64,000 nucleotides of DNA from Callorhinchus milii (taxonomy: Eukaryota). Below the pieces are notes generated by a model. The model saw only the letters and a program-made list of their open reading frames with translations, searched no databases and was not told where the DNA came from. Where the stretch lies: positions 102,674,001-102,738,000 of the forward strand of contig NW_024704742.1 of the NCBI RefSeq assembly GCF_018977255.1. The letters are read 5' to 3'. Positions 3,734 to 50,250 of this stretch are shown here, one piece after another. A program made the position numbers and the translations under genes. Position 1 is the first letter of the stretch; the number at the start of each line of letters is the position of its first letter.

Positions 3734-6700
3734 TGTGGGAACACAATGATGGAAAGAGTAGACAGACGTTTCTGCAACCAAAAACGTGACTCTAGGTATG
3801 TTGCCTCCCTGATGCCAGGGTTGAAGACATCAAGGAACAAATACAAAACATTCTACAGGGGGGAGGGACACATCCAAAAGTTGTGGTCCATGTTGGGATC
3901 GATGACATAGGGAAAAAAAGGGAAAAATAATAGTGTAAAGAGCAAGGAGGGGTAAGGATTCCTGAAATGTGTGCAGGATAACTTTCTGGATCAGCATGTT
4001 TCCAGTCCAATGAGGAAGGAAACAGTGCTGTATCTAGTTCTGGGGAATGAAGTGGGGCAAGTGGAGCAGGTTTCAGTAGGAGAGTATCTAGACAACAGTG
4101 ATCACAACATCAATAGGTTTAGAGTACTTATAGAAAGGGACAAGGAGCAATCAAGGGTGAAGGTACTCAACTGGAAGAGAGCTAATTTCAATGAGTTAAA
4201 AGGGAACGAGCCAAGGTGGACTGGACAGAAAGATTGGGAGGTAAAACAGCTAACGAGCAATGGGAAGCTTTCAAGGAGGAGATAGTTCGGAGGCAGAACA
4301 AATACATTCCCACAAAGAGGAAAGGTAGGACTTCCAAACCTCCCTGAATTATTAAAGAAATTGGGATTAAAGTAAAACAGAAAAAGGAGGCTTATGATAA
4401 ATGTCACAACCAAAATAAAGATAATCAAACAGAATATAGAAAGTATAGAGGAGAACTGAAAAAGGAAATAAGAAGGGTAAAGAGATTGTATGAGAAAAGA
4501 TTAGCAGGTAACATAAAAGAGAAGAACCCTAAGGTATTTTATAAGCATATAAAGAATAAAAGGTTAGTCAAAGGATAGATCCAATTAGGGACCAAAGAGG
4601 AAATCTTCTTGTGGCGGCAGAGGGCAAGGCTGACGTACTGAATGAGTACTTTGCATCTGTCTTCACAAAAGAAGAAGATGCAGCCAATGCCACAGTGTCA
4701 GAGAAGAAGGTAAAGAAATTGGATAAGAATAAACTGAGAGGAGGTACTATAAAGGTTGTCGGTGCTCAAGGTAGATAAGTCACTCGGACTGGATGGGATG
4801 CATCCTAGGTTACTGAGGGAAGTAAGGGTGGAAATAACCACAATCTGGCCACTGACTTTCAATCCTCCTTGGACACTGGGATAGTGCCAGAAGACTGGAG
4901 GTTTGGAAATGTTACTCCCCTGTACAAAAAGGGGCAGAAGGATAAACCCGGGAACTATAGGACAGTCAGCATAACGTCAGTAGTGAAAAACTTCTAGAGA
5001 CTATAATCCGTGACAAAATAAATTTTCACTTAGAAAAATATGGGTTAATAAAGGACAGCCATGTGGGTTTGCTACAGGCAAATCATGTCTAACAAACCTG
5101 AGAGTTTTTTGATAAAGTAATGGAGAGGATGGATGAAGTTAATGCAGTTGATGCAGTTTATATGGATTTTCAAAAGGTATTTGATAAAGTGCCACATAAG
5201 AGAGTTGTAAGCAAACTAAAAGCCTACGGTATTAAAGGGACAGTGGCAGCATGGATACAGAACTGGCTCAGAGACAGAAAGCAGAGAGTGGTGGTGAACG
5301 GTTGATTTTCTGACTGGAGGGAAGTGTGCAGTGGTGTCCCCCAGGGGTCAGTATTGGGACCACTGCTGTTTTTTATCTATATGAATGTCCTGGACTTGGG
5401 TATAGGGAGTACAATTTCCAAGTTTGCAGATGATACTAAGCTAGGAAAAGTAGTAAACAGTGAGGAGGATAGTAGCAGACTGCAAGAGGACATAGACAAA
5501 CTGGTAAAATGGGTAGACATGTGGCAGATGAAGTTTAATGTGGATAAATGCAAAGTGATGCATTTTGGAAGGAAGAATGAGGAAAGACAATATAAGTTGA
5601 TGGTACAATCTTAAAGGGGGTGAAGGAACAGAGAGACCTGGGGGTTCATATAAGTAAATCTTTGAAGGTGGCAGGACAGGTACATAAAGGTGTTAAAAAA
5701 AGCATAGAGAATACTAGGCTTTATAAACAGGGGCATAGAATACAAAACAACAACAACAACAAGATTCCATTTATAAAGCGCCTTTCACGTCAGGAGGACG
5801 TCCCAAGGCGCTGCACAGTTGGGTCATGACCTGAGCAGGGGGGAAATGGTCAGGGGAGGGGAGGGAGCGAGGAGGGGGAAATGGTCAGGGTGAGGGGAGG
5901 GAAGGGAGGGAGCGAGAAGGGGAAGAGAGTCGAGAGGGGAGCTGAAGGCTCGGTCAAAGAGAAAGGTTTTGAGACCGGCCTTGAAGGAGGAGAGGGAGGA
6001 AGCGGCGAAGGCACTGGGGTATAGAGTTCCAGAGCCTCGGGGCTGAGAGGCTGAAGGCCCGACCACCAATGGCAGGGCGATTGGGGCGGGGGACGTGGAG
6101 CAGACCGGAGCCGGAGGAACGGAGGGTACGGGCAGGTAGGTAGGGGATAGTAGGTTGGAGAGGTAGGAGGGAGCAAGGCCGTGAATGGCCTTGTAGGTGA
6201 GGATGAGGATCTTGAAATCAATCCTCTGGGGGATGGGGAGCCAGTGGAGGCGAGCGAGGGTGGGAGTGATGTGGTCGCGAAGCCTGGTGCGGGACAGTAC
6301 ACGAGCTGCAGAGTTCTGAATGACCTGCAGCTTGTGGAGGGAGGTGGCGGGAAGGCCGGCGAGGAGAGAGTTCCCATAGTCCAGCCTTGAGGTGACAAAG
6401 GCGTGGACCAGGGTTTCAGCAGCGTGAGGGGTGAGGTAATGCCGTAGTCTGGCGATGTTCCGGAGGTGATGGAAGGCGGTGCCAGTTGTGGTGCGGATGT
6501 GAGGGAGAAAGGACAGCTCAGGGTCGAACAAAACGCCGAGGTTCCTGACTGGCTTTGAGAGGTGGAGAGTGCAGCCTTGGATGCTGATGGTGTCAGCGCC
6601 TGAGGTGCGGAGGCGCTGACGTGAGCCAATCAGGAGGGCCTCGGTTTTTCGCACGTTGAGCTGAAGAAAGTTGTCTCTCGTCCAGGACTCGATGTCGGAC

Positions 6701-7938
6701 AGGCAGCTGTCAGGACATCGGTGGTCGTGGAGTTGAGAGTAGAGGAGGAAAGGTAGAGTTGGGTGTCATCCGCATACATGTGGAAGTTAACTCCATGTCT
6801 GCGGATGATGTCACCAAGGGGGAGCATATAGAGGGTGAAGAGGAGGGGACCGAGGACAGAGCCCTGAGGGACACCACATGAGACAGTACGGGGGGTGGAG
6901 GAGAAGCCATTCGTCGAGACAAAGTGAAGACGGTGAGAAAGGTACGACCTAAACCACTCAAGGACAGTGCCTTGAAGGTTGAGGTGGGAGGACAAGCGGT
7001 GGAGTAGGATAGCGTGGTCGACCGTATCGAATGCTGCCGATAGGTCGAGGAGGACGAGGAGGCAGAGGGAGCCCTGGTCACAGATGGTCAGGATATCATT
7101 GGTGACCTTGACCAGGGCAGTTTCTGTGCTATGGGCAGCACGGAAACCCGACTGAAGGGGTTCGAAAAGAGAATGGGTGGAAAGGAAAGAGCGCAGTTGG
7201 GAGGCGACAACTCTTTCCAGGACCTTGGAGAGAAAGGGGAGGTTGGAGATGGGCCGGTAGCTTGATAGCTGCGACGCATCAAGGGAGGGTTTTTTCAGGG
7301 TGGGCGTGATGGTGGCAGTTTTTAAGGGAATGGGGACAGAGCCAGAGGAATAGTCAGGAAAGTCAGGAAGTTACGATGAACCTTTATAAAACACTGGTTA
7401 GGCCTCAGCTAGAGTACTGTGTCCAGTTCTGGCCACACTTTAGGATGTCAAGGCATGGGAGAGGGTGCAAAGGAGATTTACCAGGATGGTACCAGGAATG
7501 AAGGACTTCAGTTATCAGTAGAGGCTAGAGAAGCTAGGATTATTCTCCTTGGAACAGAGAAAATTAAGAGGAGACTTAAAATAAATTCAAAATTGTGAGG
7601 GACTTTGATAGGGTGAACTAGTTCCACTGGTGGGTGGGTCGGTAACCCGAGAGCACCAATTGAAAATAGTTAAAGGATTGTTAAAGGAAACAGAGATGAT
7701 GAGAATTTTTTCACACAGCGAGTTGTTTGGATCTGGAATGCATGGCCTGAAAGGGTGGCGGAAGCCGATTCGATAACAACTTTTAAGAGAGAAGTAGATA
7801 ATTATTTGGGGAGGACAAGTTTGCAGGGCTATGGGGAGAAAGGGGGGGAAATAGGATTGATTTGGATAGCTCTTTTCAGACATGATGGGTCGAATGGCCT
7901 CCTTCTGTGCTGTGTAATTCTAAAATTCTATGATTCTA
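3734..7938 (+). mobile_element. CR1 LINE (ORF1 esterase-like remnant and decayed ORF2), interrupted by an L2
   Basis: VVVHVGIDDIG ORF1-like segment; [50 protein letters not shown] after the L2; TTCTATGATTCTA tail. Confidence 0.92.
5746..7350 (-). mobile_element. L2 LINE, 5'-truncated, relatively young
   Basis: [54 protein letters not shown]; (TTG)n tail at 5746-5762. Confidence 0.95.
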
Positions 7939-11759: not shown

Positions 11760-12399
11760 CTGTTCAAAGGGAAAATAGTAAACAGAGGAGAAGCTTCACT
11801 CAGTTATGCAAAATTTTAAAATCACTGCACCTGACAAAATGTTAAAATCACTATTCAAGGAGTTAAATGCTTTTATTGCTTCTGGAGATTATAAAATTAA
11901 CACTCATCAAATGACCAAGTACATGTAGTGACAATTTTAGAAACCCCTTTATTTTTGACTGTGATACTGTATTGCAGATTCAATTCTTAAATAATGGCAA
12001 TAAACAGAATTTTTTAAATGTTCGAAAAATAGCTTCAATATTCCGAAAATAGGAACAACAAACTCTCGGTGTTTTATCATTTGAACTCATCAAAGAGATT
12101 ATTTTTCTTTTTATGATTCCTAAATATCCATTAATCTTTATGTTTTTAATAAGTACGTGTGTGTGAGAGTGTGTGTGTGTTGAGGAACGGAAGGAAAGTA
12201 TGTTCAATGTATAGTACTCCTTTTATTTAGATTACTTTTTTTAAAAAAATACAAAATATTAATTCCCCAAATGTTGACATGCGCAAATGTACCTGATTCC
12301 CTGTCCTGCAGCTCTTCCCTGACATTTTTTTTTATCAGCTGCTGTAGACCAATTTTGCAGCTATTTAACTTTCCATTCATTTTTCTCAGTATTTATGAC

Positions 12400-15266
12400 C
12401 TGGGTCAATAGAAAAGTGCGGGCGCACCTTTTCCGCAACAGCGGGCCTCGTCTGCTACAAACCCACTGTAAGAAGCACCTCGGGTAGTGACCGTTACCCA
12501 CAGTGCGCTCGGCCCCAGGCCTCTCGCGCTGTTCGCTCAACGCCGCTACTGTGGCCGGAGCGGCTCCGACCTCGCATGCGCGGTGCAGTGACTTTTGGGA
12601 TCGCGGAATCGACGGGAAACCGACTTCGCCGGTGAGTGAACCTCAACAGGAAAAATCAGCTGCGTCACACACGCTCCCACACAGTCCTGGTAAGTGCTGT
12701 ACTATTTCAAATTAAGATATTTAGTATTTTGAACGTAACTACATTTTCAGGAAATTCACACCTCTCCGGGCTGTTTCGCTTTTTAGGTTGTTCAATACAA
12801 AACTGTCCCAAGTTTTTGTAAATCCCACGAGGAAGCCTCATTTTCCGCCTATCTCTCAGATAGAAACTGTGCTCTATCCAGATGGCCTTTATGAAGAAGG
12901 GGGTCAGGTGTTTCGCCATGTTTGTTGTCACACAATTGCCCATGTTCGCAAGTTCACTGATGAGCACATGAAATCTCGGAAACAGTGTGAGCGGCAGTAA
13001 AGAAAAAAACCATCACTGCTTTGTAATACATACTTATTACAAACCATCACAGCTTTGTAATACATACTTTTTATATATATAATATTAAACGAAAATGTAT
13101 CATTATTAGTTTTCACTTCAATTTGAAAGAAAATCTTAATTTGTAACTATTACAAAAATTAATCTCCCTCCTTTTTTGATTGAATTTTAAAAGCACATAA
13201 AACAACCACAGCAAACCAAAACAAACAGACAGAACATTTCTAACCACAAATGCATCATGAAGATCAATTTTTATTTTTTTCTTTATAGGTGGATCTGGAC
13301 CTCAAAGATAACTTGCTCTGACAACCTGCTTCTCTAGAGCCACTGCATCATCTATGGAGAGAACATAATTCATATTGGATTTTGTGCAGTGTTTGATGAG
13401 AGCAGACATACTACTTGAAAAACTGCCTTCCAAGAGTTTCTATGCAAGTACAAGAAACGGAGGGATTATTCCAACACCATCACAGCTTTGTAATACATAC
13501 TTGAAGGAGCTTATTCCTCAGAGAAACCCTCCTCTTTTTGAAGAGTGCTGTGGGATCTTCAGAGTCCACCTGAACAAGCTGTCAGGACTTCAGTTTAAAG
13601 TCTCATCCAAAGATGGCATCTCCATGAAGCATTTTTGCATGAAGCATTTTTGAAGAAATATGTTGAGGACACGGATGTGTACTGGTTCCTGGATGAGACC
13701 ACTGATTCCAACGGGCGCAGTATTCTGGCAGTGCTGCCACAGCTACTGCAGAAAGTTGGGGAGAAGCATCTTATTGGAGTAAAATTTTTGCAGTGAGTCA
13801 ACCACGCCACTGTGTCACAAGCTCTTCTAAAAGTCTTAAATGTAAAAATGGTTAACTTTGATAAAGTGCTTGCAGTTGCCACAGTCAGTGCAAGCTACCT
13901 GAATCAAAGCATTTAACACAGTTCTGTCGGGATTGTTTTGTGCATTGCCCATCTTCTAAACTTGATTTTGGAAATTTGATCTGTTATACTGGAGGACTTA
14001 AACACAGTGGTTGTTATGGTCAAAAAAGTCTTCTGCCAAAGTCCAATGCACCGGCATCAGTACTTAAAGTTATGGAGACAAAGGATGGAATTAAACCACA
14101 GACGTCGTTGGTGCTCCTGGGTGAAGACTGTTGAATATTTGTGTGAGTACTTGCCTGTCTTGGCAGAATTTCTTCAAGGAATTGCATCAGAGACCTTAGC
14201 AGTGAAAAATAACGCTCTTGAACAATAACACTGCAGAATTGCAAGCCCAAGCAATCTTTGTCACAGAGCACTCATCTGAGCTCATAAAACTCATTGAAGA
14301 ATGTCAGGCAACAGCTGTGCCTCAGGGCCACAATCTGTACTTACCGGTCCAAAATTTACATTTGTTTATTGATTTCTGTGCCACTGCTGAAGCACAGGAG
14401 TACAGACCAAGGACAAAGGAATAGTTGGCATCCTGTTCTGAGAGTGAGGAGAGAGGCATGTGTGAACCTTTTCCAGAGAATCATGCAAGCCAGCAGTGAA
14501 AAGTTGGCACTGATTTTGAAAAAGCATCCATCAATTGCTACCTATAAAGCAGTTCATATTTTTGATCCTCACTAGCTAGCAATAATGGATGCAGAAAAAG
14601 ACTTATATAGTAATGTGATTCCTGCCCTTTCAACTATTGCAAACTTCAAATGGCATGCTTATAAAGCAGCTGGAGAAAATATCACAGCAAACCACAAAAT
14701 AGCAGCATGGAGAGGAGCTCAGCTTGAGCCACTTGTGAAACTTGCTAAAATTGCGAAAAGGTACATTTGGCTACCAGTGAGCACAGTTGATGTTGAAAGG
14801 TCATTTATGTTTATTCAGACCTCCTCAAAGATAATAGACAAAGCCTAATAAGAGAAATTATAAATTATAAATATTCTTCTCATGTTAAAATTTAACCAGC
14901 ACTAAACTTTTGGCTGAGAATTTTTTGTTTGGTTTCTGTGGAAATTTGATTTCGAATATTAGAATTTCTCTGCAAACTGTGTTGAAACTGCACTTTTGCA
15001 TCTTTTGAAAGGTGCTATCTTCTGTTTTTGTTAAAACATTAATACATTGTTTTTTTTGCAATAAGCTATGATGTGTTATTTATTTTTTACTAATAATGAG
15101 AAAAGAGAAAAAATGTAGGTTAGCAGCAAAATGTGTCTCTCAATAGCATCAATCAACCTCCACAATTTTCTGCAAAATTTGGCAAACTTCTCTGCAATGC
15201 CCCGCAAGGCTAGCAAAATGCTCTGCAATTTTTTGCAAATATTTTCACACTTTTCTATTGGTCCAG
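12400..15266 (+). mobile_element. Full-length decayed hAT DNA transposon with a CGGBP1-like transposase, in COMMD10 intron 1
   Basis: 19-bp TIRs CTGGGTCAATAGAAAAGTG (12400) and CACTTTTCTATTGGTCCAG (ends 15266), 17/19 match. 8-bp TSD tttatgac (12392-12399) / cttatgac (15267-15274). Internal transposase remnants. Confidence 0.9.
12829..14900 (+). pseudogene. hAT transposase pseudogene: CGGBP1-like BED-type finger and dimerisation region, DDE core, C-terminal hATC motif
   Basis: LYEEGGQVFRHVCCHTIAHVRK..EHMKS and LDFVQCLMRADILLEK..RNGGIIPTPSQLCNTYL resemble CGGBP1 (LHEDGGKLFCTSCNVVLNHVRK..DHLKS; QDFVKMCLEANIPLEK..KNGGSIPKSDQLRRAYL). Downstream are FLDETTD (13692), CIAH (13941), RWCSW (~14105) and LPVSTVDVERSF (~14795). 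Multiple stops and frameshifts. Confidence 0.88.
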
Positions 15267-15746
15267 CTTATGACTAAACAAAATGCTCATTTGCATTATT
15301 GTCTATTAAACAGCTTTGTTCCGTTACTGACATCAGCTGTACATTACCCTGCTGAGTCTGAAAAACAGAAATGCCAGGTCTCTGCCGGCAAGTAGAAATA
15401 AATTTAAAGAAAGCTTGAAGTGAGAAATTGTCATTCAGTCTACATTTCACACAACCTCCATTCACATGACCTCCACTTGAGTCTCTCCCAAAACTCTCAA
15501 ATGTATGAATGCAGGATTCCAGAATTCTATCTATCTCCACATCTCAATTCTGCCCAGTTTCCTACTACTCATGCATACTCATCACTAGGTATGCAACTTA
15601 TTCTGTCTGTGAATATCCCATTAACTCCCTTTCCCCAGTTCCAGATAGTGATCCAGTTCCTTTTACATCTCCCACAAAGTAGGCTTTCCTAGGTTGTTTT
15701 TTAATAAATGGCTTCTATTCACAATTACCACACTTCTTGCAAAAGA

Positions 15747-16070
15747 TGACTGGCTGGCTCAGTTGGCGGCATTCTTGCTTCTGAGACAGAAGATTGTAGG
15801 ATAATGTCACATGTTGAAACTTTGACCCCATAGTGCTGGGGGAGTGCTGAATTTTTGGAGATGTAATCTTTGGATGAGGGTTTAAACTGAAGTCCTGACA
15901 GCTTGTTCAGGTGAACCCTGAAGATCCTACAGCGCTCTTCAAAAAGAGAAGGGTTTCTCTCAGTGTCTTGGGCAATGATCCGCCTGGCAAAAAATAGGCA
16001 TTCACTTCATGGCTATTACTGTGGCAAACTGGCTGCCACATTCGTCTAAACAGTAACTACAATTTGCAGA
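15747..16070 (+). mobile_element. Deu-domain SINE (older type)
   Basis: GGCTGGCTCAGTTGG head, then CTTTGGATGAG...GTTCAGGTG...AAGATCC and CAAACTGGCTGCCACATT, typical of the Deu central domain. Confidence 0.65.
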
Positions 16071-17180: not shown

Positions 17181-17360
17181 CCTCGGCCGCCTGTCAATCA
17201 CCTGTCAATCACCTGCAGCTGGACCCCGGGCTCAGAACCTTCCCCGGATCCGCGCGCTCAGCAGCGGCGTCACGTGACTCGACTCAGCCGCTGACAGCCG
17301 ACGGAAGCTCAGGAGGCGCGAGCGTCCAGAACCCCACTGAGCAGCCAGGGGGGCGGGGCC
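17181..17360 (-). promoter_or_regulatory. COMMD10 CpG-rich promoter/5' UTR
   Basis: GC box GGGGCGGGGC at ~17350, ETS-like CGGAAG at ~17302, palindromic E-box GTCACGTGAC at 17269-17278, and two TGATTGACAG decamers (minus strand) at 17191-17211, directly upstream of the ATG. Confidence 0.75.
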
Positions 17361-17377
17361 AGGCACAGCACTGAGAC

Positions 17378-18062
17378 AGGGCATCAGGATACACAGGGGC
17401 ATGGGCATCAGGATACACAGGGGCATGGGCATCAGGATACACAGGGGCATGGGCATCAGGATACACAGGGGCATGGGCATCAGGATACACAGGGGCATGG
17501 GCATCAGGATACACAGGGGCATGGGCATCAGGATACACAGGGAGATGGGCATCAGGATACACAGGGGCATGGGCATCAGGATACACAGGGGCATGGGCAT
17601 CAGGATACACAAGGGGGTGGGCATCAGGATACACAGGGGCATGGGGATCAGGATACACAGGGGCATGGGCATCAGGATACACAGGGGCATGGGCATCAGG
17701 ATACACAGATGGGCATCAGGATACACAGGGGGATGGGTATCATGATACACAGGGTGATGGGCATCATGATACACAGGGGGATGGGCATCATGATACACAG
17801 GGGGATGGGCATCATGATACACAGGGGGATGGGCATCATGATACACACAGGGATGGGCATCATGATACACAGGGAGATGGGCATCATGATACACAGGGGG
17901 ATGGGCATCATGATACACTGGTAGTTTGGCATCATGATACCCAGGGAGATGGGCTGATACACAGGGAGATGGGCATCATGATACACAGGGAGATGGACAT
18001 CATGATACACAGGGAGATGGGCATCATGATACACAGGGCGATGGGCATCATGATACACAGGG
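17378..18062. repeat. 24-bp minisatellite, ~28 copies (ATGGGCATCAGGATACACAGGGGC, switching to ATGGGCATCATGATACACAGGG(G/A)G)
   Basis: Directly visible tandem array with two sub-arrays. Confidence 0.97.
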
Positions 18063-21000
18063 AGAAGATAAATAAAAGAAAGGAGCAAATAGACAAAGAG
18101 AGGGCAGAGAGATTAATAGATAAACAGCAAGGACAGATAGACAAAAGGACAGAAAGATACACAGAACGACACACAGTAGAGGAAATACGTTATTTACTGT
18201 TTATTAACAATGAACAAAAAAAATCTGTTCATCAAGGTCAATATTGAAGCTAATAGGAAGAAAAATGAACCCTGACAACCCTGGGTTCCACTTATTAACA
18301 TTGTCATTACTGAAGCTTGTTCATATTGTGGATGTGCGGAGTTAAATCACATGTGAGAAATGCAATAAAATTGTAAAAATTGCACAATAAATAGATTTAT
18401 CATCAATAAGTCACACAAAGTGTAGCGTATATTTGAAGGGGCACCATATTTATAGGGGAATGTAGCAAACTTCTCTTTTTGTGTACAAACTCACCATCCC
18501 GTTGTGTAAATTACAATGTATTGTCATGTCTCTTTAGTACCTTTTTTTTGTTAAGTTCTGTGCTTCTTGGACAACTGCCTGAGTCCATTTGTTGTTGTGG
18601 CCACTTGCTGTAAACAGACCACATAAGGTCCTGAAGGGAGAGGAAAGAGATGGAGGGATAACTGTCTGCATATCAATTGCACAGTTCTCTGCTTCCTTTG
18701 TGTAATCTACATTAAGAATTGGGGCGGGGTGCGAAGGGTGTTTGGAAACAGAATGTCAGAATCGAGTCAACTCTCTGTGGCCGTCTCAGCAGTGCAGTTC
18801 CTGAGCCAGATGGGTCCACAGTACTTCAGGGCACTGCAGATGACAGACCAGCCAACCTGGCTCATTGGCAGGATTTGAAGGAAGAGATCAGTCACTGGCT
18901 GCAAGAATCCCTCCTATCCCTGTCAGGATCCCAGGCTCGAACAACTTCAGGACCTTGGGATGTCCTCCCAACGTGAAAGCCACTTTACAAATGTAGTATT
19001 GAATTGTCTTTTGCCCTTACCTTTGTAACTTACTCCTTTTTAGATTCATGGTGAGGTTCAATTTGCTGAATTTTACATTTGAGACTGACTGAGGTTGACT
19101 TATGTTCCATATCACCACATAGTAATTCTTATATTCTGGTTCAAACAAAAATCACTTTAAACAGCCAGTTTTCCACAGAAAATGGAGAGGGGCAAACAGA
19201 TAAAACTACTATACTACTGGCCAGATCGATGGAGAAGCAAGAAATCAGTTACAAACTAAATAAAAACAAGTGCTAGAATAAATGGATGAAATGTGAAAAA
19301 ATGTGAAGAAGAAAGAACCATGATAATAGGATTGCTGGTGAAGAAAAAAAATACACTTACAACTGAAAGTTGAATTCTTCCAAAATATTTCTTTAATCTT
19401 GATATATGGTTGCTGTGCTACAGTAATAATAATCCTTGCATTGATATTGCACCTTATCACATGTTTATATATTGTAAAATTGAATGACTATATTTTTGTG
19501 AGCGAAAACATGACCATCATCTACATGGAGACCGATTTGTAACCCGTCAACAGCTGACTGGAAATCTTAGACACCTGCCTTGTTCATTTTGTGGCTTCTT
19601 TATTTTTTTAAATAGTTTAAACAGTTTTTTTACTGTATGGTCACGCTGTTTCCTGTTGAAAAACCTTGACTCGAGTTGTTGTGGAACCACATCCCCCTTC
19701 AGTTCTGCGCACAATTGTCTGCTGCATTTTGCCCACAAAATATACAGTCAATTCACTTTACAGTATATTCTGTGAAACGCTTTCAGACATCTTGAAAGCG
19801 TAATAAGGCGCTTGATTATAATCCAATGATTATTAAGGACTTTATTCTAACTGGATCTCTGACCGACCAGTTAGTAGCTTACTACACCTGCTGTCTTGTG
19901 GAACTTTCTAAACCCAAAACTCACAATGCTTGGTTGCAAAGATTTGAAGATTTAATGAATACAAAACATTGCCTTGAATGCCTTCCTTTATTCTGACAAA
20001 CTGGTCCTCTCTTTGTTTTGCAACAATCCAAGTACTACATGACAATTCATTTGAATCATCAACACTTCTCAATGTTAATATTTAGTAGAGTAAATGAAGC
20101 TAAAGATACACAAGTTCAAAAATGAACGACTAAACAATTTATTAATGGTTCACACGCAATAACATTGTGATTAATTTCAATATAATTTTAATAATAATAA
20201 TAAGCTAGTACATTTTCCTTTGATTTTTAGGTCTTGGACTTAAATCTTGCCCAGAATGTTGCAATGGGAGTCTCCTCACTCAACTGATTGTAAGAAATTC
20301 CTATAAGGCTTTCTTAACCTAATTTGTGGTTGAATCACAAATTTGTGGATGCTTGATTTATTCTTGCTACAGTAATTCCAAATGACAGAGAGTAACGAGT
20401 AAGTAAATATAGCCATGAAAGTGTGATGAAACTTTGATTCTAGTAGCTTCAGACAAAAATACAGATGTAGTGTGCTTTTGTGAAAAGAGGATACGACAAT
20501 TTGATGTTTGCGAAATGGTCTCAATAAGGAGCAAAATGTCTGATAACAAGTGGCTACAACTGTTTGCTTTGGCTACAGCTAATATTTCTCATAATTGACA
20601 GCAAGTTTTGAAATGATATTACAATTAGGCCACCTTGTGGTCCAGATAGTCTGAAACAACGGATGGTATTGGAGCCTTGAATGGGCTCCCAAACAAGCCA
20701 ACATGCAACGCAGGTGAAATAGATGTTTGTACTTGTGGCATGTATTGTACCACAAACAAAGGAAAAACACTTCTTGGCTGCACATTATTCCCCAACAAAC
20801 TGAAATTCTAATCATTAACTTAATCAAAGTTTTGTAGTAGAAATTATACATTTGATATCAAAATTATATTGATAAAGATAAATGGAATAATTCTGTAATA
20901 TACGCATATATTATATGCAACATTTTATTCTTCACAACATACATACTAGAATTATATTACAGTCAGAAAAAAAATTGGAAGGGATCCCGTAAATTAATTT

Positions 21001-29714: not shown

Positions 29715-32180
29715 ATAATGCACTCCCTTTCCGCTTCGCTGGAGACATCCGAACTCCTGCCCCCCTGGCTCTCCTCTAACAACAACCTACCCTCCTCCCT
29801 CTCTCTTCCCCACAACTCCCTCTCCTCCATCGTTGATTCCCTTGCCCCCCTGTACATGCTGACATCATCCACGCAGAGGGGATTAACTTCCACATGTATG
29901 CAGATGACACGCAACTCTTTTTCTCTGCCTTTACCCTCAACCCCAGGAACACTGATGTCCTGACAGACTGCCTGTCAGACATCAAGTCCTGGACGAGAGC
30001 CAACTTTCTACAGTTGAACATCAGCAAAACCGAGGCTCTCCAGCGCCTCCGCACCTCAGGCACTGGCAGTATCAGCATCCATTGAGGCACACTCCACCTC
30101 ACCAAGCCAGTCAGGAACCTAGACATCTTGTTTGACCCTCAACTATATTTTCTCCCCCACATCCATGCCATGACCTGCTTTGCTTTCTCCCATCTCCCCA
30201 ATATTGCCTCGCCCCTCAGACAACTGAAACCATCATACGTGCCTTCATTACATCATGACCCGACTATGCCAAATCCCTGCTTGTCGGCCTTCCCAACTCT
30301 TCCCTCCACACGCTGCAGATTATCCAGAAGTCTGCAGTTTGTGCCCTCTCCCGCACCAGGCTCTGTGACCCCATCACACCCATCCTCACCCGGCTCCACT
30401 GGCTCCCCATCCCTCAAAGGATCGAGTTCAAAATTCTCATCCTCATCTTCAAGGCCCTCCATGGCCTTGCCCTCTCCTACTTCTCCGACCTGCTAACCCT
30501 TTATCAAGCTATCTGCTCCCTCCACTCAGCAGGCTCCGGCCTGCTGCATGTCCCCCACCTGGCCTGTCCCACCATCAGTGGTCAGGCTTTCAGCCTCTCT
30601 ATCGCACCTCAGGAACTCCATCACACATTCCCTTCGCCTTGCTCCCTCCCTTGCCTCCTTCAAGACGCACCTCAAGACCCTCCTCTTCAACCATGCCTTC
30701 CGCCACCCCACCCTCTCTGCCCTCCAACCTCCCTAATCCCAAACCCCTCACGCTCGGGTCCTAATCCCTGACTGTTCAGCAACTTTGGAAGTCCTCCTGA
30801 ATGTTTACAAATGTAATTTTGTATTTTATTGTACCTCTCCCACCATCTCCACTTTTGTTCAACTAATGGCTTCTCCTCTAGCCCCCGCACCATCATGTAT
30901 GGCAGCCCTTAGGGTTCTATCCTTGGTCCTCTCCTTTCCAACATTTACATGCTCCCATTTGGCAACATCATCTATAGGCATGGGGTCAACTTCCATCTGT
31001 ATGTGGATGACACCCAACTCTACCTCTCCGACTCCACCCTTGACTCCAAGGCCATTGCTGTCCTCACAGACTGCCTGTTGGACATCAATTCCTTGATGAG
31101 AGCAAACTTCCTCCAGTTGAATGTCAACAAGATCGAGGACCTCTTGCTTGCCTCCCGTCAGGGTCTCCATTCTCAGGCACTGACAGCATCACCCTGCATG
31201 GATGCCAATATGGAAACTGGCATCCTATTCGAGCCTCAACTGTCCTTCATCCCCCATATCCTTGCCATGACCCGCTCTGCATTTCTCCACCTCTGCAACA
31301 TTGCCCGGTTCCGCCACTGTCTCTCATTGAAGGCCACCAAGAACCTCATCCATGCATTCATCACATCCAGCTGACTGAACAAACTCCCTGCTTGTTAGCC
31401 TCCCCTCCACAGGATGCAAATCATCCAGAATACTGCAGCCTGTGTCCTCTCCCGCACCAAACTCCGTGACCCTATCATCCCCATCCTTGCCTGACTCCAA
31501 TGGCTTCCCATCACACAGAGGATGCAGTTCAAGATCCTGGTCTTCACCTTCAACACCCTCCACAGTCTGCCTGTACCCTCCGTTCCTCTGGGTCCAGTCT
31601 GCTCCACATCCCCCGCCCCAACTGCCCTACCATTAGTGGCCGGGCCTTCAGCCTCTCAGCCCCGAGGCTCTGGAACTCTATCCCCCAGTGCCTTCGCCTT
31701 GCTTCCTCCCTTTCCTCCTTCAAGGCCGGTCTCAAGACTTTTCTCTTTGACCGTGCCTTCAGCTCCCCTCTCGACTCTCTAACCCTCCTCGCTCCCTCCC
31801 TTCCCTCCCCTCAGCCTGACTATTTCCCCACTGCTCGGGTCCTGACCCAACTGTACAGCGCCTTGGGACGGCCTCCCGACGTGAAAGGTGCTCTATAAAT
31901 GGAATCTTGTTGTTGTTGTTGTTGTTGTTGCTCCTCTGTGACCTCCTAATCCCCTACAACCTACCCATTCCTCCTGCTCAGTGAGCTCAGGCCTGATTCA
32001 TGTCCCCCAACTTGCCCATTGGCTGGAGAGCTTTGAGCCTCTCTGCCCCACCCTCTGGAACGCCATCTTAGTCCCTCCTCCTTGCCTCCTCCCTTCAAGA
32101 TGCTTCTCAAGATCGACCATCCTCCTAGCCCTACCCTCCCAGCCCTCCACCCCTAATGAACCCAACCACCAGCTCGGGTG
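29715..32180 (+). mobile_element. Tandem and nested L2 fragments (at least three copies)
   Basis: YADDTQLF and [10 protein letters not shown] motifs, LHWLP motifs, LKTFLFDRAF ends. A young copy at 31570-31930 has a (TTG)n tail. Confidence 0.9.
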
Positions 32181-33944
32181 AGGATCACTCTCTTCCCCTT
32201 CTTTTTTTGCATTGTTAAAACATGTGTTGAGTAAACCTGCCTTGGTTGTTGGGGCTCTCACCTCAAAGAGTCCAAAGATTGTAGGTTTAGGTCCCATGTT
32301 CGGGCTTGAGCTTGTAGATTAGGCTGATATTTTAATGAGGTATTTGAGTAAAACTGTCATCTCATCCACCTATTATTCCCTTTTACCTCCTTTATTTTCT
32401 TCCCTGTAAAGAATACTGCTATTCAGTCACTCTGGGTTCAAAACTTGAAGATGTCTACGTGGCAGATTAACTTCTGAAAATATCATTGCTGATTCTTATC
32501 TGAGCTCGGCAGGCAATGGCCTGCTCTGTGTCCCATGCCCTGCCTGCTCCACCATCAGCAGTTGAGCCTTCAGCGTTTCTACCCCGACCCTCATGTAATT
32601 GAGATGTCCGAAAGCACTTCACATTGTGAAGTGTAGTGACTGCGTATTTGTAGGTGAACCATGTCATACATTGAACTACCAGTTTGTGGCAATGGGCTGC
32701 TGGTTAGTGGAAGAGTAGCTAAACTAAACAAATCAGAGTAAAAGCAGCATCCCCCTAGCAGGTAGTTTGATGCCAGCTGCTCAACAAAACCATTGAAAAG
32801 TGTGTGTGGGGGTGCAATGAGAGAGTGTGAGAATCCAATGCAGCACACCCAGGATCCAGTCAATGTGTTAGATATAAGAAGGTGGCTATTTTGGATGCAT
32901 ATGTGTTAATAAGATTCATGGCATTAATTAACACAGGACACGTTGCAATTCTCACTCCATCAAAAACATCCAATAAAGAGGCAAAATGCACACACTATGT
33001 CAGTATGACCTGATGATGAAATGCTGAACATTTAAGGATGAATAATTCTTATTCTAAATTATTACATATACAGTATAGTGATTAAGCCTTGACATAAACT
33101 TTGATTTTACATTGTATGAATGCTGGAATAATTACATACTATGTCAATTGATTTATAACAACTGAAACAGAATTCTACGACATCGTATGTGTGTATGTGG
33201 GGGGAATGAGGCAGAGGGAGGGAGGGATGGATGGATGGATGGAGTTCCAGAGAGCAAGGGCAGATGGCTGATGGCTGGGCACAATTAGATGGTGGATGTA
33301 AAATAAGCTGGTGTTCACGGAGGAATCAGCCAGGGCAGTAGGGTAACATCAATTGAGCCTGGATATGTAGAATAATCCAATCTAATGCATGACTTTTGTA
33401 GGGGGTACTTAATATCTGACCCAGCAGTGAAGTAAGGACTGGCACAAATGCTTTCAATCAATCAATATTTATTGATACAAATTAGCAAGATTATGCAAGT
33501 TACAATCAGTAAATCAATCAAAAGTAATGCTTACATGACAACAACTTGCTTGCATTTATATAGCACTCTTTATGTGGGGTAGCATCCCGGATTGCCTAAA
33601 CAAAGGGCGGTGAGTAGGAGTGGGAGCATTTTCAGAGGGTGTGGCTCAGGTCAGGGGCAGCAGTCAAACATGCACTCCGAGACTGGGAGCAGAGGAATCA
33701 GTGGGGCATCATGAGCCCACAAGCATGGTGGCCGCAAGAGGCTAGAGAGGACTTTGCAGAGGGGAGACAGAGGATGGTGCTCATGGCTTTGTTGGATCAA
33801 AGCCAGAGAGGGAGGGAATGGTGGATGGGATTAAAGGAGGACAGGGTGCTTGCAAGTGGGCCTGCTCATGAGTGTTCATGTGGGAAGAAATAACATAGAT
33901 AGAAGTAGACCAGAGGTCCGTCATGCTAAATTTAGAGGATTAAC

Positions 33945-36600
33945 ACCAACAACAAAATTACATTTGTAAAGCGCCTTTCACGTCGGGAGGATGTCCCAAG
34001 GCACTGGACAGAGTTATGGACATAAGCTGGGAGTCGGGGTGGGGGAGAGTGGAGGGCAGGGGGGGAAGCAGGAGATCGAAAGCACGGTCAAAGAGGAGGG
34101 TTTTGAGTTGGGTCTTGAAGGTGGCAAGGGAGGGGGCGAGGTGGAGGGACTGCAGGATGGAGTTCCGGAGGGTGGGGGCAGAGTGGCAGAAGGCCCGCCC
34201 GCCAATAGTGAGGCAAGCAAGGTGGGGCACATGAAACAGGCCTGAGCCTGCTGAGCGGAGGGAACGAACAGAATGGTAGGGGGTTAGGACGTCGCAGAGG
34301 TAGGGGGGGAGCAAGACCGTGGAAGGCTTTGAAGGTGATGACCAGGATTTTGAACTGTCTCTTCTGTGTGATGGGACCCAGTGGAATTGGGCAAGGATGG
34401 GGATGATAGGGTCACGGAGCCTAGTGTCAGCTCTCTCGCCTCCACTGGCTTCCCATCCCCCAGAGGATCGAATTCAAGATCCTCATCTTCACCTACAAGG
34501 CCATTCACAGCCTTGCTCCCTCCTATCTGTCCGACCTACTATCCCCCTACTTACCTGCCCGTACCCTCCATTCCTCTGGCTCCAGTCTGCTCCACATACC
34601 CCGCCCCAACCGCCCTACCATCGGTGGTCGGGCCTTCAGCCTCTCAGCCCCTAGGCTCTGGAACTCCATCCCCCAGTGCCTTCGCGGCTTCCTCCTTTTC
34701 CTCCTTCAAGGCCGGTTTCAAGACCCTTCTCTTTGACCGAGCATTCAGCTCCCCTCCCGACTCTCTAACCCTCCTCGCTCCCTCCCTTCCTTCCCCTCAT
34801 CCTGACCATTTCCCCCTGCTCGGGACCCAACTGTCCAGCGCCTTGGGATGTCCTCCCGACGTGAAAGGCGCTCTATAAATTAAATCTTGTTTTTGTTGTT
34901 GCTGTTGTAGTGTGGGAGAGGGCTGCAGAGTTCTGGAGTTCTGGGAGCCAATCAGGAGGGCCTCGGTCTTGTTGACGTTCAACTGAAGAAAGTTAGCTCT
35001 CATCCCGGACTTGATGTCTGACAGACATTCTGTCAGGACAGCAGTGGTCCTGGAGTCAAGGGTGGAGGCAGAGAGGTAGAGTTGGGTGTTATCCGCATAT
35101 AAGTGGAAGTTGACCCCAGTCTGTGGATGATATCACCAAGAGGGAGCATATAGATTTTGAAGAGGAGGGGACCAAGGACAGAGGCCTGAGGAACGCCGCA
35201 CAAGACTGTGCAGGGGTTAGAGGAGAAGTCGTTTGAGGAAATGAAGTGCAGGCAGTGTGAGAGGTATGATCTGAACCAGTCAAGGACAGCGCCGTGGAGG
35301 GTGAGGTGAGAGGAGAGGCGGTGGATGAGGATAGAGTGGTCGACGGTGTTGAAAGCAGAGAGGTCAAATAGGACAAGGAGTCAGAGGGAGCCCTGGTCGC
35401 AGATGGACAGAATGTCATTCGTCACTTTGTGCTGTGGGCAGCACGGAAACCCAATTGGAAGGGTTCGAGAAGGGAGTGACAGGAGAGGAAGGAACGAAGC
35501 TGAGAAGCAACAACTCATTCCAGGACCTTGGAGAGGAAGGGGGTTTGGAGATGGGGTGGTAGTTAGGGATTAGAGAAGGGTCCAGGGAGGGTTTTTTAAG
35601 GATGGGAGTGATGACAGTGTTTTTTAATGGGGTGGGAACAGTACCAGAGGACAGGGAGAGGCTTACAATGTCAATAAGTAAGAGGACAAGGAGGTGGAGC
35701 TGGGAGGTAAGGAATGGGGTAAGGATGGCGTCAAGGGAGCAGGTGGTAGGTTTCATACAGTTTATGGTGGTGATGAGAGAGGAGGGGGAGACAGGTTCAA
35801 AGATGTGGAGGGATAGATGGATAGGGGCTGGGGTGGGAGGATGAGATGGGGAGGGGGAAGCAGATGCAGTGGCAGAGGCAGCTGAGTGGATTCCCTCACT
35901 TTGGATTCAAGGAAGTCCAGCATCACCTCGCAGTTGGCATTTGAGATGAGGATGGATGAGGCATGAGAGGGTGGGCAGAGGAGCTGGTTCTTGATGGAGA
36001 AATGAGCCTAGGGTTGTCCTTAGCCTCCAAGATTGTCTTAGAGTAGAACAACGATTTAGCAGAGGTGAGGGCAGAGCGGTAGGATTTGATATGGTCCAGC
36101 CAGATCTGCCGATGGACAGTGACGTTTGATTTAAACCAGGTGCGCTCAGCAGAACATGTCTGAGCTTCAAGGGAGTGGTGGTGGCTGGTGTACCAAGGTG
36201 ATTTATGTGAATAGGAGACAGTTCGGGAAGAGAGGGGAGTGAGAGAATCAAGAGTGGAGGAGAGGAAGCTGTGTGACCGAGGAGGACAGGTCAGTGCGGG
36301 AGAATGCCCAGAGGGGAAGGAGTTCAGATGACTCCAAAGAAACCGGGGGGAGGAGACTTTTTTCTCAGGGGCAGTATGAGATGGAGGTGGGTTGGGTGGC
36401 GGTGGGGAGAGGGATTGAGGAGTTAAGGGAGATGAAGTGATGATCCGAGCTTGATTTGTCGATGATGGTGAGGTCCGAGACGGTGAGGCCCCGAATGATC
36501 ACCAGGTCGAGGGGATGACTGTAGACGTGGATGGTGAGTGTTTTGTTGGAGAGGGAACAGATGATTTGTAGACCGATGCAGAGGGGACAGTTGGTAGTGA
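33945..36600 (-). mobile_element. L2 LINE (endonuclease to 3' end, decayed)
   Basis: PLDLVIIRGL..SDHHFI endonuclease region, TCSLDAI..GTVPTPLK, RT region and 3' tail. Confidence 0.9.
34428..34907 (+). mobile_element. Young L2 3' fragment nested in the older L2
   Basis: TSD TAGTGT at 34422-34427 and 34908-34913. Very similar to the 3' part of 5746-7350. Confidence 0.88.
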
Positions 36601-42454: not shown

Positions 42455-42661
42455 TAGTCCTGTAGTGGTTAGAGCATCACCTCACAAGTGAAAGGACCCG
42501 GACTTGATTAGATTCCGAGGCAGAGCGAAACCTTAGGCAAGTTTCCTTACTCTACACACCTCTGTTTACTTAGCAGTAAGTAGTTGTCAGTTGATTGGTG
42601 GATTGCTTTCCATAGGTAATAATCCCTTCAAAAAAAAATAATAATTTGGTCACTCAATCCA
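42455..42661 (+). mobile_element. SINE 5' half
   Basis: tRNA-like head followed by CCTTAGGCAAGTTTCCTTACTC. Confidence 0.7.
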
Positions 42662-42679
42662 CTTAGCATTTAATATGAG

Positions 42680-44103
42680 GATAGAGGGAGCTTCAGTGGA
42701 TGCAGGAAGGAAGTGATGGACAGTGGAAAACAGCGTCTTTGGATTGTTGTTTGCCTCCAGGATGACTTTGGAGTAAAAGTCAATTTTGGCCTGTGAAAGA
42801 GAGAGGCGGTAGGTGCGGAGGTGCTCAAGCCACAGCTGGCGGTGAATTGTGAGGCCAGATTTCTGCCATCTGTGCTCGATTGTCCGGGTTTGTGTTTTGA
42901 GTGAGCAGAGATGACTGTTGTACCAGTGAGAGTGGGTGGGTTTGGAAACAACCCTAGATTTCAGGGGAGCCAGGCAATTAAAGCTTGTGAAGAGATGGTC
43001 ATTCAACAGCTTCATGGCTGCACCAGGATCGCTGCAGGTGGAGGGTCAGAGGGAGATGAGGTCTGAAGAAGAGAAGGCGTTTGTGAGGGACTCAGGGGGA
43101 AACTTTTTCCAGGGGAGGAAAAAAATGGTGCTGTGCTTGGAAAAGAATGCGGGAGGAGAGGGAGATGAGGAAGTGGTCCGAAATGGCCTTGTCCATGATA
43201 GATGGATCAGAAATGTTAAGGCCATGTGTGATGACGAGGTCGAGGAAGTGGACACGGTTGTGTGTTGGCAAATTGATGTGGAGGGTGAGGTTTAGGGAGG
43301 AGAGGAGGGCAGTGAAGTCCGAGGAAGTGGTGCAAGGGGAGTTTAGGTAGAGGTTGAAATTACCCATCATGAGCAGGTGTTCAGTGCAGAGGAATAGGGA
43401 TGAGAGGAGAGAGGAGATATTAGTGAGGAAGGAGCCAGGAGGTTTGTGGGGGGTGGTAAACTAGAAGGATTTTGAGGGAGAAAGAAAAGCGATGGTAGAG
43501 GGAGAGAGAGGAGGGATGGTAGAGGGTAAGGTATTAAAGGAGGAGAAACAGCCAGAGGAATAGGAGGATAGACCAAGGGAAGCTTGGGAGATGAGGGCCT
43601 CCCCACCGCCACGTTAGTTGGGCGGGGGGTGTAATGAAAGGTATAGACAGCAGGGGAGGCTTCAACAAGGGGGACAGGGTCACCAGGGGAGAACCAGGTT
43701 TCTGTTAGCCCAAGAAAATCAATGTGCTCATCCAGGATGAGGTCATGGATAGTAAGGGCTTTATTGGAGAGGGAGTGGACATTTTGGAGGGAAATGCAGA
43801 TAGGTTTGCTGGTGGTGGGGGGAATGGAGGGGAGTGGTATAGAGAGGATTTGGGGTTGTGGGGGAGCAATGACCGTGGAGTTTCAGGAGGGGGGGAGAGT
43901 TGGAGAGGATATGGATGAGGGAGGGAAAGGGATGTTTGTCTTTCGGAGGCGGACGGTGTGGAGAGAGTGAGTGATGGGACAGTTGGGGTGGCTGCTCTGG
44001 GACAATGCCGGGAGTCACAATGGGCCTGGCGGAGGATGCCCAGGCTGGAGCAGAAGGAGGTAATGGTGGGGTCCAGGAGAGAGAGAAGACGAGGAGGGCA
44101 GTT
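42680..44103 (-). mobile_element. L2 ORF2 N-terminal (AP endonuclease) fragment
   Basis: LGLTETW, MGNFNL, LPTHNRVHFLDLVIT, ISDHFLIS motifs. Confidence 0.85.
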
Positions 44104-47214: not shown

Positions 47215-49085
47215 TTCAACTTCCACCTTGCTTCTGTACATTACCTGCCTCCATTCGTAATTCACAACTGATGCAGCTGAAACCCTCGTCCACCCCTTTG
47301 TCACTTCCCAGCTGGATTATTCTAATGCCATCCGCGCTGATCTCCCCAGCTGATCTCCAATTAATTCAAAGCTCCACTGCCTGGATACTCACCCACACAC
47401 AACAACTTGCATTTATATAGTGCCCTCCACGCTGGGCAGACTCTCAGAGTGCTTAACAGTGGTGGAGCCTGACTCCTAGCCGGGGGAAAGGGGAGGTGCC
47501 TGTAAGAATGGTTGAACAGAAAGTTTTCAGGTGGGACTTGAAAGAGGGGAGAGAGGGGGCAAGGCGGAGGGATTGAGGGAGAGTGTTCCAGAGTTTTGGG
47601 GCGTACGTTGGAATAATCCAAGCGGGAGTTGACAAATGCATGCACGAGGGTTGTGGCTGCATTTGGGATAAGGTACGGTCGGAGGTGGACAATGTGATGG
47701 AGGTGGAAGAAGGCGGTCCTGGTCAGGAACTGGATGTGGGGGAGGAAGGACTGCTGGGATTCAACTGGATGCTTAGGTTGGCACTGGTTTGGTGAGCCTG
47801 AGGGAGAGCCCAGGGAGGTTGAGGAGTTTAGATTCGCAGGAGTGAAGACGTTGAAGGGAGCCAAGGAGTACGGCTTCCGTCTTGTCCATATTCAGCTGCA
47901 GGAAGTTTATACACATCCAGGCCATGATGTCTGCCAGACAAGTTGATAGATCATTGGTGGACCTGGAGTTGGTACTGGAGGAGGCAAAGTAGATTTGTGT
48001 GTCATCCGCATTTGGAAGTTTGGAAGAAATGGAGGCGGTTGGTTAAGTAGGACTCGAACCATGCAATTCCAGTCCCACTAAGGTAGATGAGGGAGGAGAG
48101 TCGATGGAGGAGGATGGCTTAGTCGACTGTGTCGAATCCGGAAGACAGATCCAGGAGGATGAGGAGGCAGAGGGAGCCCTTGTCACAAATAGAGAGAATG
48201 TCGTCTGTGAACTTTGACATGCGCTGTCTCTGTGCTGTGGGAGAAAACCAGACTGCAGTGGCTCAAGGAGGGAATGGAGGGAGAAGGACCGAAGTTGACC
48301 TGCAACAATGCGCTCCAGGACTTTGGCAAGGAAGTATAGGTTGGAAATGGGATGGTAGTGTGAGAGATTAGAATGATCAAGGATGTTTATTTTGAGGAGG
48401 GGTGTGATGACAGGGGTTTTCAGGGGGAGTGGAACAGAGCCTGAGGAGGGAGACTGGTTGACCATGTCGTCCAGCAGTGGGGAGAGAAGGGGAAATTGAG
48501 TGACCAGCAGCTGGGTGGGGAGGGGGTCAAGGTAGCAGGTGGTGAGCTTCATCTGGCTGATTGTGGTTGAGAGGGAGGAGGGAGAAACGGGGGCAAAGGA
48601 GTGTAAGGAGGGGGGAGTGGCAGGAGCCGTGGCGGAGGGAGATAGCGGTGTGGACGGTCTAGGTGGGGTGGAAGGGGACATGGGGGGGTGCAGGATGATG
48701 CAGCCAAGCGGATGTTTTCAATTTTTGAGGCAAAGAAGTCTAGGATCTCTTCGCATTTAGCATTTGAAGTGAGAATAGAGGGGGCTTGAGGGGCTGACGT
48801 AGGAGGTGATGAACGGTGGAAAACAGCGTCTTTTGAATTGTTGTTTTTCTCCAGGATGAAAGTCAGTTTTGGCCTGTGAAAGGGAAAGGCGATAGGTGCG
48901 GAAGTGTTCGAGTCACAGCTGGCTGTGAATCACCGAACAGATCGACTTCAAGACTTTAAGATCCTCACTTGTTTTCAAATCACTTCTTCCCTCACGCCTC
49001 TAGCCTATCCGACCTGCTTACCCCCCACTCCACCACCCGCTGCCTCCGCTCGGCTGGCTTTGATCTCCTAATTGTCCCTTGTGTC
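47215..49085 (-). mobile_element. Cluster of decayed L2 fragments, mostly on the minus strand
   Basis: LVHAFVNSRLDYSN, TCYLDPLPTQLL, LEPLQSGF motifs. Confidence 0.85.
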
Positions 49086-49351
49086 TAGCAAATATTTAAC
49101 TTTCTTAAGTGCAAACTTAACCATCTCACTTTGAGTTTATAAATTCAGGACACTTGTAGATACTAGGAACAGCGGGGTCTATAAACAGACCTCTGAGGGA
49201 TTTTTCTTAGGACCTCTTTCCATCCTGATCCAGCCTCCTTTAGAACTACCTTCTGCTTCTTCCCTTTAGCCATTGACTGAACTATTGCCTAAATCATACC
49301 CTTCATACCAACTTAAATTGATTTATAAATTAATCTTTTAATTTTTAATTT

Positions 49352-50250
49352 CGATTCCAGGACTACTGACATCCTGACAGACTGCCTGTCCTGGATGAGA
49401 GCCAACTTTCTACAACTGAATGTCAGCAAGACTGAAACCTTACTGATTGGCTCATGCCAGCGCCTCCGCATCTCAGGCACTCGCAGCAACAGCATCCACG
49501 GATACGCACTCCACCTCACCAAGCCAGTCAGGAACCTGGGCGTCTTGTTCAAACCTTACCTGTCTCTTCTCCCCCATATCCATGACATGAGCCGCTCTTC
49601 CTTCCCCCACCTCCGCAACATTGCCCCACTCTGCACTGGCTTAACCTTCAGGTCGCCAAAATCCTCATACATGCATTTGTCACCTTGAGGCTCGACTACG
49701 GAAACTCCCTCCACAACTTTTCCCTCCACAAGCTGCAGATCATCCAGAGCTCTGCAACTCATGTTCTCTCCTGCACCAGACTCCATGACTCCATCACCCC
49801 CACCCGGCTCCACTGGCTCTCCATCCCTCAGAGGATAGAATTCAAAATCCTCGTCTTCACTTTCAAGGCACTCCACAGCCTTGCCCCCTCCTCTATCTAT
49901 GACCCACTGATGACCTATCAACCTGTCCACTCCCTCCGCTCAGCAGGTTCCGGTCTGCTCCATGTCTCCCACCCGACCAGCGCTACCATCGGCACCAGGG
50001 CTTTCAGCCTCTCTGCGCCCACCCCTTAGAACTCCATCCCACAATCCCTTCGACTTGCTCCCTCCTTGCCTCCTTTAAGGCACAACTCAAGACCCTCTTT
50101 TTCGACCATGCTTTAGGCAACCCTCCTACCCTCTCTGCCCTCCCTCATCCCAACCTGCCCCCCATGCTCGGGTCCTGATCCTCGATTGTTCAGTTCCTTG
50201 GGACATCCTCCAGCGTGAAAGGCGCTTTACAAGTATAATTTTGTTGTTGT
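49352..50250 (+). mobile_element. L2 3' fragment
   Basis: [40 protein letters not shown] tail. Confidence 0.9.

Follow-up and report, generated by a model that had tools for sequence, protein, structure and literature searches.

A decayed hAT transposon with a CGGBP1-like N-terminal module in the genome of the chimaera Callorhinchus milii

Positions 12400-15266 of a 64,000-nucleotide stretch of the genome of the elephant shark, the chimaera Callorhinchus milii (assembly GCF_018977255.1, contig NW_024704742.1, positions 102,674,001 to 102,738,000 of the forward strand; the whole stretch is hereafter called the window), hold a transposon of the hAT superfamily. We read it, with a probability of about 0.93, as a decayed, once-autonomous copy of a multi-copy hAT family of this species. 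The copy is dead, and the CGGBP-type hAT transposons to which it belongs are a known kind. An initial annotation, made from the sequence, overstated the novelty of the element: the origin of CGGBP1 from hAT-19-type transposases, of which full elements occur in crocodile, turtle and coelacanth, is already published (PMC8097297, PMC9004415).

The ends of the element and the behaviour of its relatives carry the first part of this reading. The 2867-bp element is bounded by terminal inverted repeats (TIRs) and a target site duplication (TSD). Its arms (12400-12418 and 15248-15266) are complementary at 17/19 positions and form the longest inverted pair within 12000-15700, and the flanking 8-mers (12392-12399 and 15267-15274) agree at seven of eight positions. 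A DNA search of the assembly to which the window belongs (991.5 Mb, 1762 contigs) scored 40 of 2743 first-look candidates, and its copy counts are lower bounds; it returned at least 110 matching pieces, 71-88% identical to the element, many of which have element base 1 as their first base and base 2862-2867 as their last. A 19-nt end motif (up to 4 mismatches allowed) marked identical termini across 30 fetched loci, with the low-similarity end matches of L019 and L029 (4 mismatches) left out of the end counts. TSD agreement at nine two-ended loci, the window copy (L001) included, was 8/8 at three, 7/8 at three, 6/8 at two and 5/8 at one; a tenth locus with both ends, L023, has flanks that agree at 4/8 and was left out of the nine pairs compared. 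The 8-mers match within a locus and differ from one locus to another, and therefore represent target duplications rather than element sequence. The element is thus complete from TIR to TIR, as the initial annotation had it, and other copies of the family end at the same termini with 8-bp TSDs of their own.

Across 24 insertions, the second target base is T in 19, the fourth is A in 22, the fifth is T in 23 and the seventh is A in 18; the target reads as a palindrome-like S-T-n-A-T-R-A-S. Internal-deletion derivatives also belong to the family (L022, L023 and L026). No paralogous empty site was shown for the window copy, both 250-bp flanks of which are unique in the genome.

A majority consensus of 2802 bp was built by script from 27 copies, which are 80-93% identical to it (24/27 at 90% or more; the window copy at 92.4%). 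Its TIRs are perfect over 22 nt. Exon 1 of the consensus is open; its finger, C-x2-C-x14-H-x5-H, is intact, and a start codon is present. Exon 2 has an open frame of 524 codons and retains the motifs DETTD, TDSASY, CIAH, RW and ERSFS, which align with the same blocks of full-length relatives. Between the exons lies an AT-rich intron with the canonical donor AAG/GTAAAA and the acceptor TCTAG/GT. Judged from this reconstruction, the ancestral product would be a transposase of ~595 aa encoded by two exons. A 97-nt contig of run X3, which is guessed to be RNA, joins exon 1 to position 13287 onward without the intron; its junction corresponds to the predicted acceptor and to the predicted donor as read in copies L005, L021 and L027, and its frame matches gene model P0009. 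Both ends of the consensus have a distinct composition. CCGCA(A) occurs six times in its last 105 bp, compared with once in ~2100 internal bp. At the 5' end the first 240 bp are CGG-rich, with bases 100-240 rich in CGG/CCGC and with three occurrences of CCGCTAC. The 5' CpG-rich region also holds, at window positions 12565-12590 (consensus ~175-200), a palindrome that reads GCGCATGCGC in the consensus and is partly kept as GCATGCGC in the window; it may resemble an NRF1-type promoter site.

The hAT membership of the protein is visible from the consensus and its homologues. Consensus exon 2 is 35% identical over 502 aa to a sea-urchin protein of 594 aa (P0043; E=4e-93) and ~30% identical to other proteins of 589-612 aa. 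P0043 passes the Pfam models Dimer_Tnp_hAT and DUF659, and so do the relatives of 589-612 aa, except that P0083 lacks DUF659. The D, D, E, CxxH and RW residues of the consensus align with these full-length relatives. The DDE, CxxH, RW and C-terminal ERxFS blocks are the names under which hAT motifs go. The family combines what marks a hAT element: an 8-bp TSD, short TIRs shared family-wide, and a DDE core with a C-terminal dimerisation domain. It resembles canonical hATs (Hermes, Ac and hobo) in its 8-bp TSD, its short TIRs, the T and A that stand second and seventh in the target, and its motif blocks, but differs in its N-terminal module, which is of the CGGBP1 type, and in a target with an added, nearly invariant central AT. 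Individual copies give fainter signals: a window fragment matched Dimer_Tnp_hAT at E=0.075 and a 224-aa open piece of copy L003 matched DUF659 at E=4.4e-5, both below the Pfam cut-off. Two further loci of the assembly (G000:C429:5110-5721 and G000:C400:63074-63691) carry stop-free frames of 261-263 aa that are 34-35% identical to the chimaera transposase; these may represent a different hAT family of this subgroup that is better preserved.

The transposase opens with a module that is truly CGGBP1-like by sequence comparison. A HMMER profile of five elephant-shark gene models derived from copies was searched against 1.84 billion protein representatives and gave 479 matches at E<=0.001 and 95 at E<=1e-10. 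The mammalian CGGBP1 cluster was the 14th match (E=1.3e-22), followed by a rattlesnake protein. Over 137 aa, gene model P0006 and shrew CGGBP1 are 39% identical (E=3e-24), and the finger and second region of the window itself match the shrew protein at E=3e-6 and 2e-7, respectively. Across 59 aligned domain sequences, C27, C30, H45, P94 and P116 are near-invariant, and these are the residues stressed by Yellan et al. (PMC8097297). A word-based homologue search did not reach amniote CGGBP1, whereas the full HMMER search did. The order proposed in the initial annotation, a CGGBP1-type finger followed by a second region, is thus borne out by both window pieces, and all peptide strings that it quoted (finger, second region, DETTD, CIAH, RW and VERSF) could be located in the window, in three frames. 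A structure model of the module had a mean pLDDT (predicted local distance difference test) of 89.9. In fold searches its residues 1-67 resembled U1-type zinc fingers (Z 5.6-6.2) and residues 70-145 generic helix-turn-helix DNA-binding domains (Z 4-5.2), and the profile matched a U1-C finger among Protein Data Bank (PDB) sequences at E=0.0033, while a PDB sequence search with the window finger piece gave 0 matches at E up to 10. The modelled fold is consistent with a DNA-binding role.

Several observations weigh against the reading of the element as a once-autonomous hAT copy. Firstly, eight stop-free pieces of the window gave nothing above the Pfam cut-off, and the assignment of the protein to hAT is made through the consensus and its homologues. 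Secondly, in the plain majority consensus the reading frames of the two exons are offset by one base; a run of 7 or 8 A at the donor sets the phase, and ~6 of the 18 alignable copies have the extra base that restores it. Thirdly, the junction in the contig of run X3 lends weak support to splicing, since this run is only guessed to be RNA; the expression evidence consists of contigs, and for three of the four runs the RNA origin is a guess. Lastly, Hermes was not among the matches of the N-terminal module in either sequence or fold search, and the equivalence of this module to zf-BED plus the Hermes DNA-binding domain is taken from PMC8097297.

The initial annotation had placed the family in the lineage related to the progenitor of CGGBP1. 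The module it relied on is indeed of the CGGBP1 type, but the closeness was overstated. When proteins were ranked by similarity to shrew CGGBP1, the elephant-shark models came 78th or lower of 181 matched proteins, and the best of them scored 68 bits, compared with 194 bits for the coelacanth protein P0045 (634 aa), which shows 55% identity to CGGBP1 in a 163-aa alignment that starts at residue 1. Also far closer to CGGBP1 than the elephant-shark models are an entry from tuatara and a ropefish/bichir protein of 916 aa. A domain tree of 104 rows and 162 columns was computed with a quick IQ-TREE search and SH-aLRT (Shimodaira-Hasegawa-like approximate likelihood ratio test) support, from input without 18 redundant cluster members and without proteins that do not span profile positions 30-125 (among them horn-shark P0144). 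Four elephant-shark models (support 99) fell into a 9-row group (98) with teleost proteins, and CGGBP1 fell with proteins of coelacanth, tuatara and ropefish into a group of 6 rows (99). Joining the elephant-shark models with CGGBP1 costs 39.3 log-likelihood units, with a p-value of 0.035 in the approximately unbiased (AU) test, which was run on 41 of the 104 rows, chosen, as the groups were named, after the first tree had been seen. On these comparisons, the chimaera family is not specially close to CGGBP1 and stands outside the progenitor lineage.

It therefore seems very unlikely that the family is a sister of amniote CGGBP1 or the lineage from which it arose, with ends and gene structure that would show those of the progenitor. 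What speaks for this is that CGGBP1 is among the best profile matches outside the elephant shark (14th of the 150 listed) and the identity between P0006 and CGGBP1 given above. Against this, the best elephant-shark model is surpassed by 77 fetched proteins in similarity to shrew CGGBP1, P0045 is much more similar to it, the two tree groups are separate and supported, and the AU test, with its post hoc groups, disfavours joining them. Amniote CGGBP1 (shrew P0166, 167 aa) aligns with the element in finger and second region and shares the Cys, Cys, His and two Pro residues, but as a host protein it is short, occurs in single copy and has no catalytic domain, whereas the chimaera transposase would have ~595 aa and a full DDE core and is placed on a different branch of the domain tree. 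Outside the host, the closest proteins that carry a name are from teleosts: Hypomesus LOC124469923 (P0008), a partial protein of Coregonus (P0024) and Thunnus LOC121892296 (P0029) are 49-51% identical to consensus exon 2 over 208-331 aa. P0024 and P0029 stand in the 9-row group of the elephant-shark models, and P0008 was not in the tree. These differ from the reconstructed transposase in being shortened or partial predicted proteins of 309-426 aa.

Two transposase-sized proteins, P0045 (coelacanth LOC102354807, 634 aa) and P0105 (Erpetoichthys/Polypterus, 916 aa), group with amniote CGGBP1 (99), and in both of them the first Asp and the Glu of ERSF are replaced. From their sequences they look like domesticated full-length relatives. 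Since catalytic residues are replaced in full-length proteins that group with CGGBP1, the CGGBP1 lineage may have been domesticated before the amniotes and truncated later.

The window copy is heavily damaged. Relative to the consensus, 205 of 2684 aligned bases are substituted (7.6%), and there are 18 insertion and 20 deletion events. Its start codon is lost, its donor is destroyed and exon 2 has six nonsense substitutions besides many frameshifts. The lesions singled out in the initial annotation (first Cys to Arg, last His to Gln and second Asp to Val) were all recovered by comparison with the consensus, and its verdict of a dead copy with several stops agrees with this count. The window copy cannot encode a transposase. 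A genome-wide check for intact copies, also suggested there, was run with the 224-aa coding piece and scored 130/130 candidates; none of its 108 matches was intact, and open frames reached at most 270 aa. Stops are present in all 30 fetched loci. The family is extinct in this assembly.

The copy also gained sequence. Element bases 1123-1237 (window 13522-13636) are skipped by every other copy that spans the site, and the insert is therefore private to the window copy; the initial annotation had marked nearly the same stretch (13520-13637) for excision. The insert is the middle fragment of a high-copy repeat resembling a short interspersed nuclear element (SINE), with 1813 first-look candidates. 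Its best genomic match is an inverted copy at 15856-15963, only 2.2 kb away (91% identity, compared with at most 86% elsewhere). The 115-bp insert with its ~15-bp target duplication looks like templated filler from break repair, not retroposition. A tandem ~27-bp insert at 13010-13070 was found in no other copy and is a second templated insertion of the same copy; its source (13477-13502) adjoins the insert of the SINE fragment.

Several elephant-shark gene models in public databases (P0006, P0007, P0009, P0010 and P0011) splice exon 1 to exon 2 of copies, and one model is 100% identical to the open frame of a copy. The splicing in these models and the spliced junction in the contig guessed to be RNA could imply that the locus, or a member of the family, is a domesticated CGGBP-like host gene and not transposon debris. 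We consider this highly improbable, because the window copy is without a start codon and carries the nonsense codons and frameshifts described above, TIRs and TSD are still present, a comparison by eye with the consensus finger shows zinc ligands missing from the gene models too, and all copies examined have stops. The models P0005-P0007, P0009-P0011 and P0022 are probably annotation artefacts and not host genes. Equally improbable is a non-autonomous, cis-competent window copy that could be mobilised in trans: both of its ends are present and deletion derivatives exist in the family, but its TIRs differ at 2/19 positions, most of its CpG-bearing repeats next to the ends have mutated (the 3' end retains one CCGCAA, compared with five in the consensus) and the scored candidates of the assembly included no open source of transposase. 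Given the lesions, the retained ends, the decayed repeats and the lack of an open source, both domestication and trans-mobilisation were rejected in favour of a decayed, once-autonomous copy, whose parts are listed in Table 1.

Table 1. Parts of the decayed hAT element and its target duplication, in window positions.
Feature	Position	Strand	Basis and remarks
TSD, left copy (TTTATGAC)	12392..12399		7/8 match to right copy; other loci have different, internally matching 8-mers
Left TIR	12400..12418	+	17/19 to right arm; terminus common to other copies; consensus 22 nt, perfect
5' subterminal CpG-rich region; probable promoter and 5' untranslated region (UTR)	12419..12802	+	GT donor-like sites near 12633 and 12691; consensus composition
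Coding exon 1, remnant	12803..13009	+	Consensus ATG maps to 12803, start codon lost; finger matches CGGBP1, E=3e-6
C2H2 finger	12872-12997	+	First Cys to Arg, last His to Gln relative to consensus
Copy-specific insert replacing the splice donor	13010..13070	+	Two ~27-bp tandem copies of exon-2 piece 13477-13502; self-matches 93-95%; insertions of 11 and 33 bp
Rest of AT-rich intron	13071..13288	+	Ends in acceptor TATAG (consensus TCTAG)
Coding exon 2, remnant (remaining transposase)	13289..14905	+	6 nonsense substitutions, many frame-shifting indels; motifs in three frames
Second CGGBP1-like region (putative helical DNA-binding part)	13369..13521	+	Follows MERT and a stop; 40% identical to shrew CGGBP1 over 50 aa (E=2e-7)
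Copy-specific 115-bp insert	13522..13636	+	Fragment of high-copy SINE-like repeat and ~15-bp duplicated target stretch
First catalytic Asp motif, DETTD, intact	13692..13706	+	Translation; alignment with relatives
Second catalytic Asp motif, VATVSASYL, Asp to Val	13875..13901	+	Comparison with consensus
CxxH motif (CIAH)	13941..13952	+	Translation; alignment with relatives
RW motif	14100..14120	+	Translation; alignment with relatives
C-terminal ERSF motif (VERSF), third catalytic residue, in hAT dimerisation region	14786..14806	+	Translation; alignment
3' UTR and subterminal region	14906..15247	+	Decayed CCGCAA repeats at ~15150-15247
Right TIR	15248..15266	-	Pairs with left arm; terminus common to other copies
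TSD, right copy (CTTATGAC)	15267..15274		Pairs with 12392-12399

In the rest of the window, fragments of the reverse transcriptase of long interspersed nuclear elements and related tails are dense on both strands (5800-7400, 30000-36500, 42600-44100 and 47300-51100), and long low-complexity tandem arrays lie at 17200-18250 and 53200-54850.

The history of the copy may be pictured as follows. The ancestral element measured ~2.8 kb, with 22-bp TIRs, CGG-bearing subterminal repeats and a two-exon gene for a transposase of ~595 aa. The N-terminal module, a C2H2 finger with a small helical domain of the kind that CGGBP1 has retained, would bind the CGG-containing subterminal repeats, and the DDE core would excise the element at its TIRs. 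Reinsertion would take place at the palindrome-like S-T-n-A-T-R-A-S, with duplication of 8 bp. In the window copy, the start codon, two of the zinc ligands, a catalytic Asp and the donor have since disappeared, and two filler insertions have been gained.

The CGGBP1 domain model matches 29 of 824 RepeatMasker hATs, mainly hAT-19 (13/16), and CGGBP domains encoded by hATs bind motifs present in their own subterminal regions (PMC8097297). PMC9004415 lists coelacanth and turtle hAT19 proteins and states that hAT19 fossils support a hAT19 origin of CGGBP1. Examples of the subgroup named in PMC8097297 and PMC9004415 are hAT-19_Crp of crocodile, hAT-13_LCh and hAT-39_LCh of coelacanth and hAT-31_CPB of turtle. 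The chimaera element is similar to this subgroup in that its transposase opens with a bipartite DNA-binding module of the CGGBP1 type and in its CGG-containing subterminal sequences, reported for four elements (PMC8097297) and represented by CCGCA(A) in the chimaera. It differs in its host, a cartilaginous fish, and its putative assignment to hAT-19 is made on its likeness to CGGBP1. A named hAT-19 element of Callorhinchus was not found in the literature, in a search that did not extend to the species list in Table S1 of PMC8097297. We give about even odds to the proposal that this family carries the range of CGGBP-type (hAT-19-like) transposons into the cartilaginous fishes and has kept a matched cis/trans pair, namely six CCGCA(A)/TTGCGG subterminal repeats and a CGGBP1-type N-terminal module.

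For the origin of CGGBP1 itself, the chimaera family brings us no closer, and the full-length coelacanth and bichir-group proteins are better candidates. What the family offers is the clean anatomy of one CGGBP-type hAT family: where it ends, which targets it prefers, which subterminal repeats it carries and how a supported intron divides its gene into two exons. For the slowly evolving chimaera genome that hosts it, its importance reaches little beyond annotation: several 'genes' listed for the elephant shark in public databases, including one that bears the name CGGBP1-like, consist of spliced pieces of the transposon family. If the proposal is true, an unusually strict, palindromic target (S-T-n-A-T-R-A-S) would characterise this subgroup. 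And if the module indeed binds the subterminal repeats, the preference of CGGBP1 for CGG would be a direct inheritance from the recognition of transposon ends.

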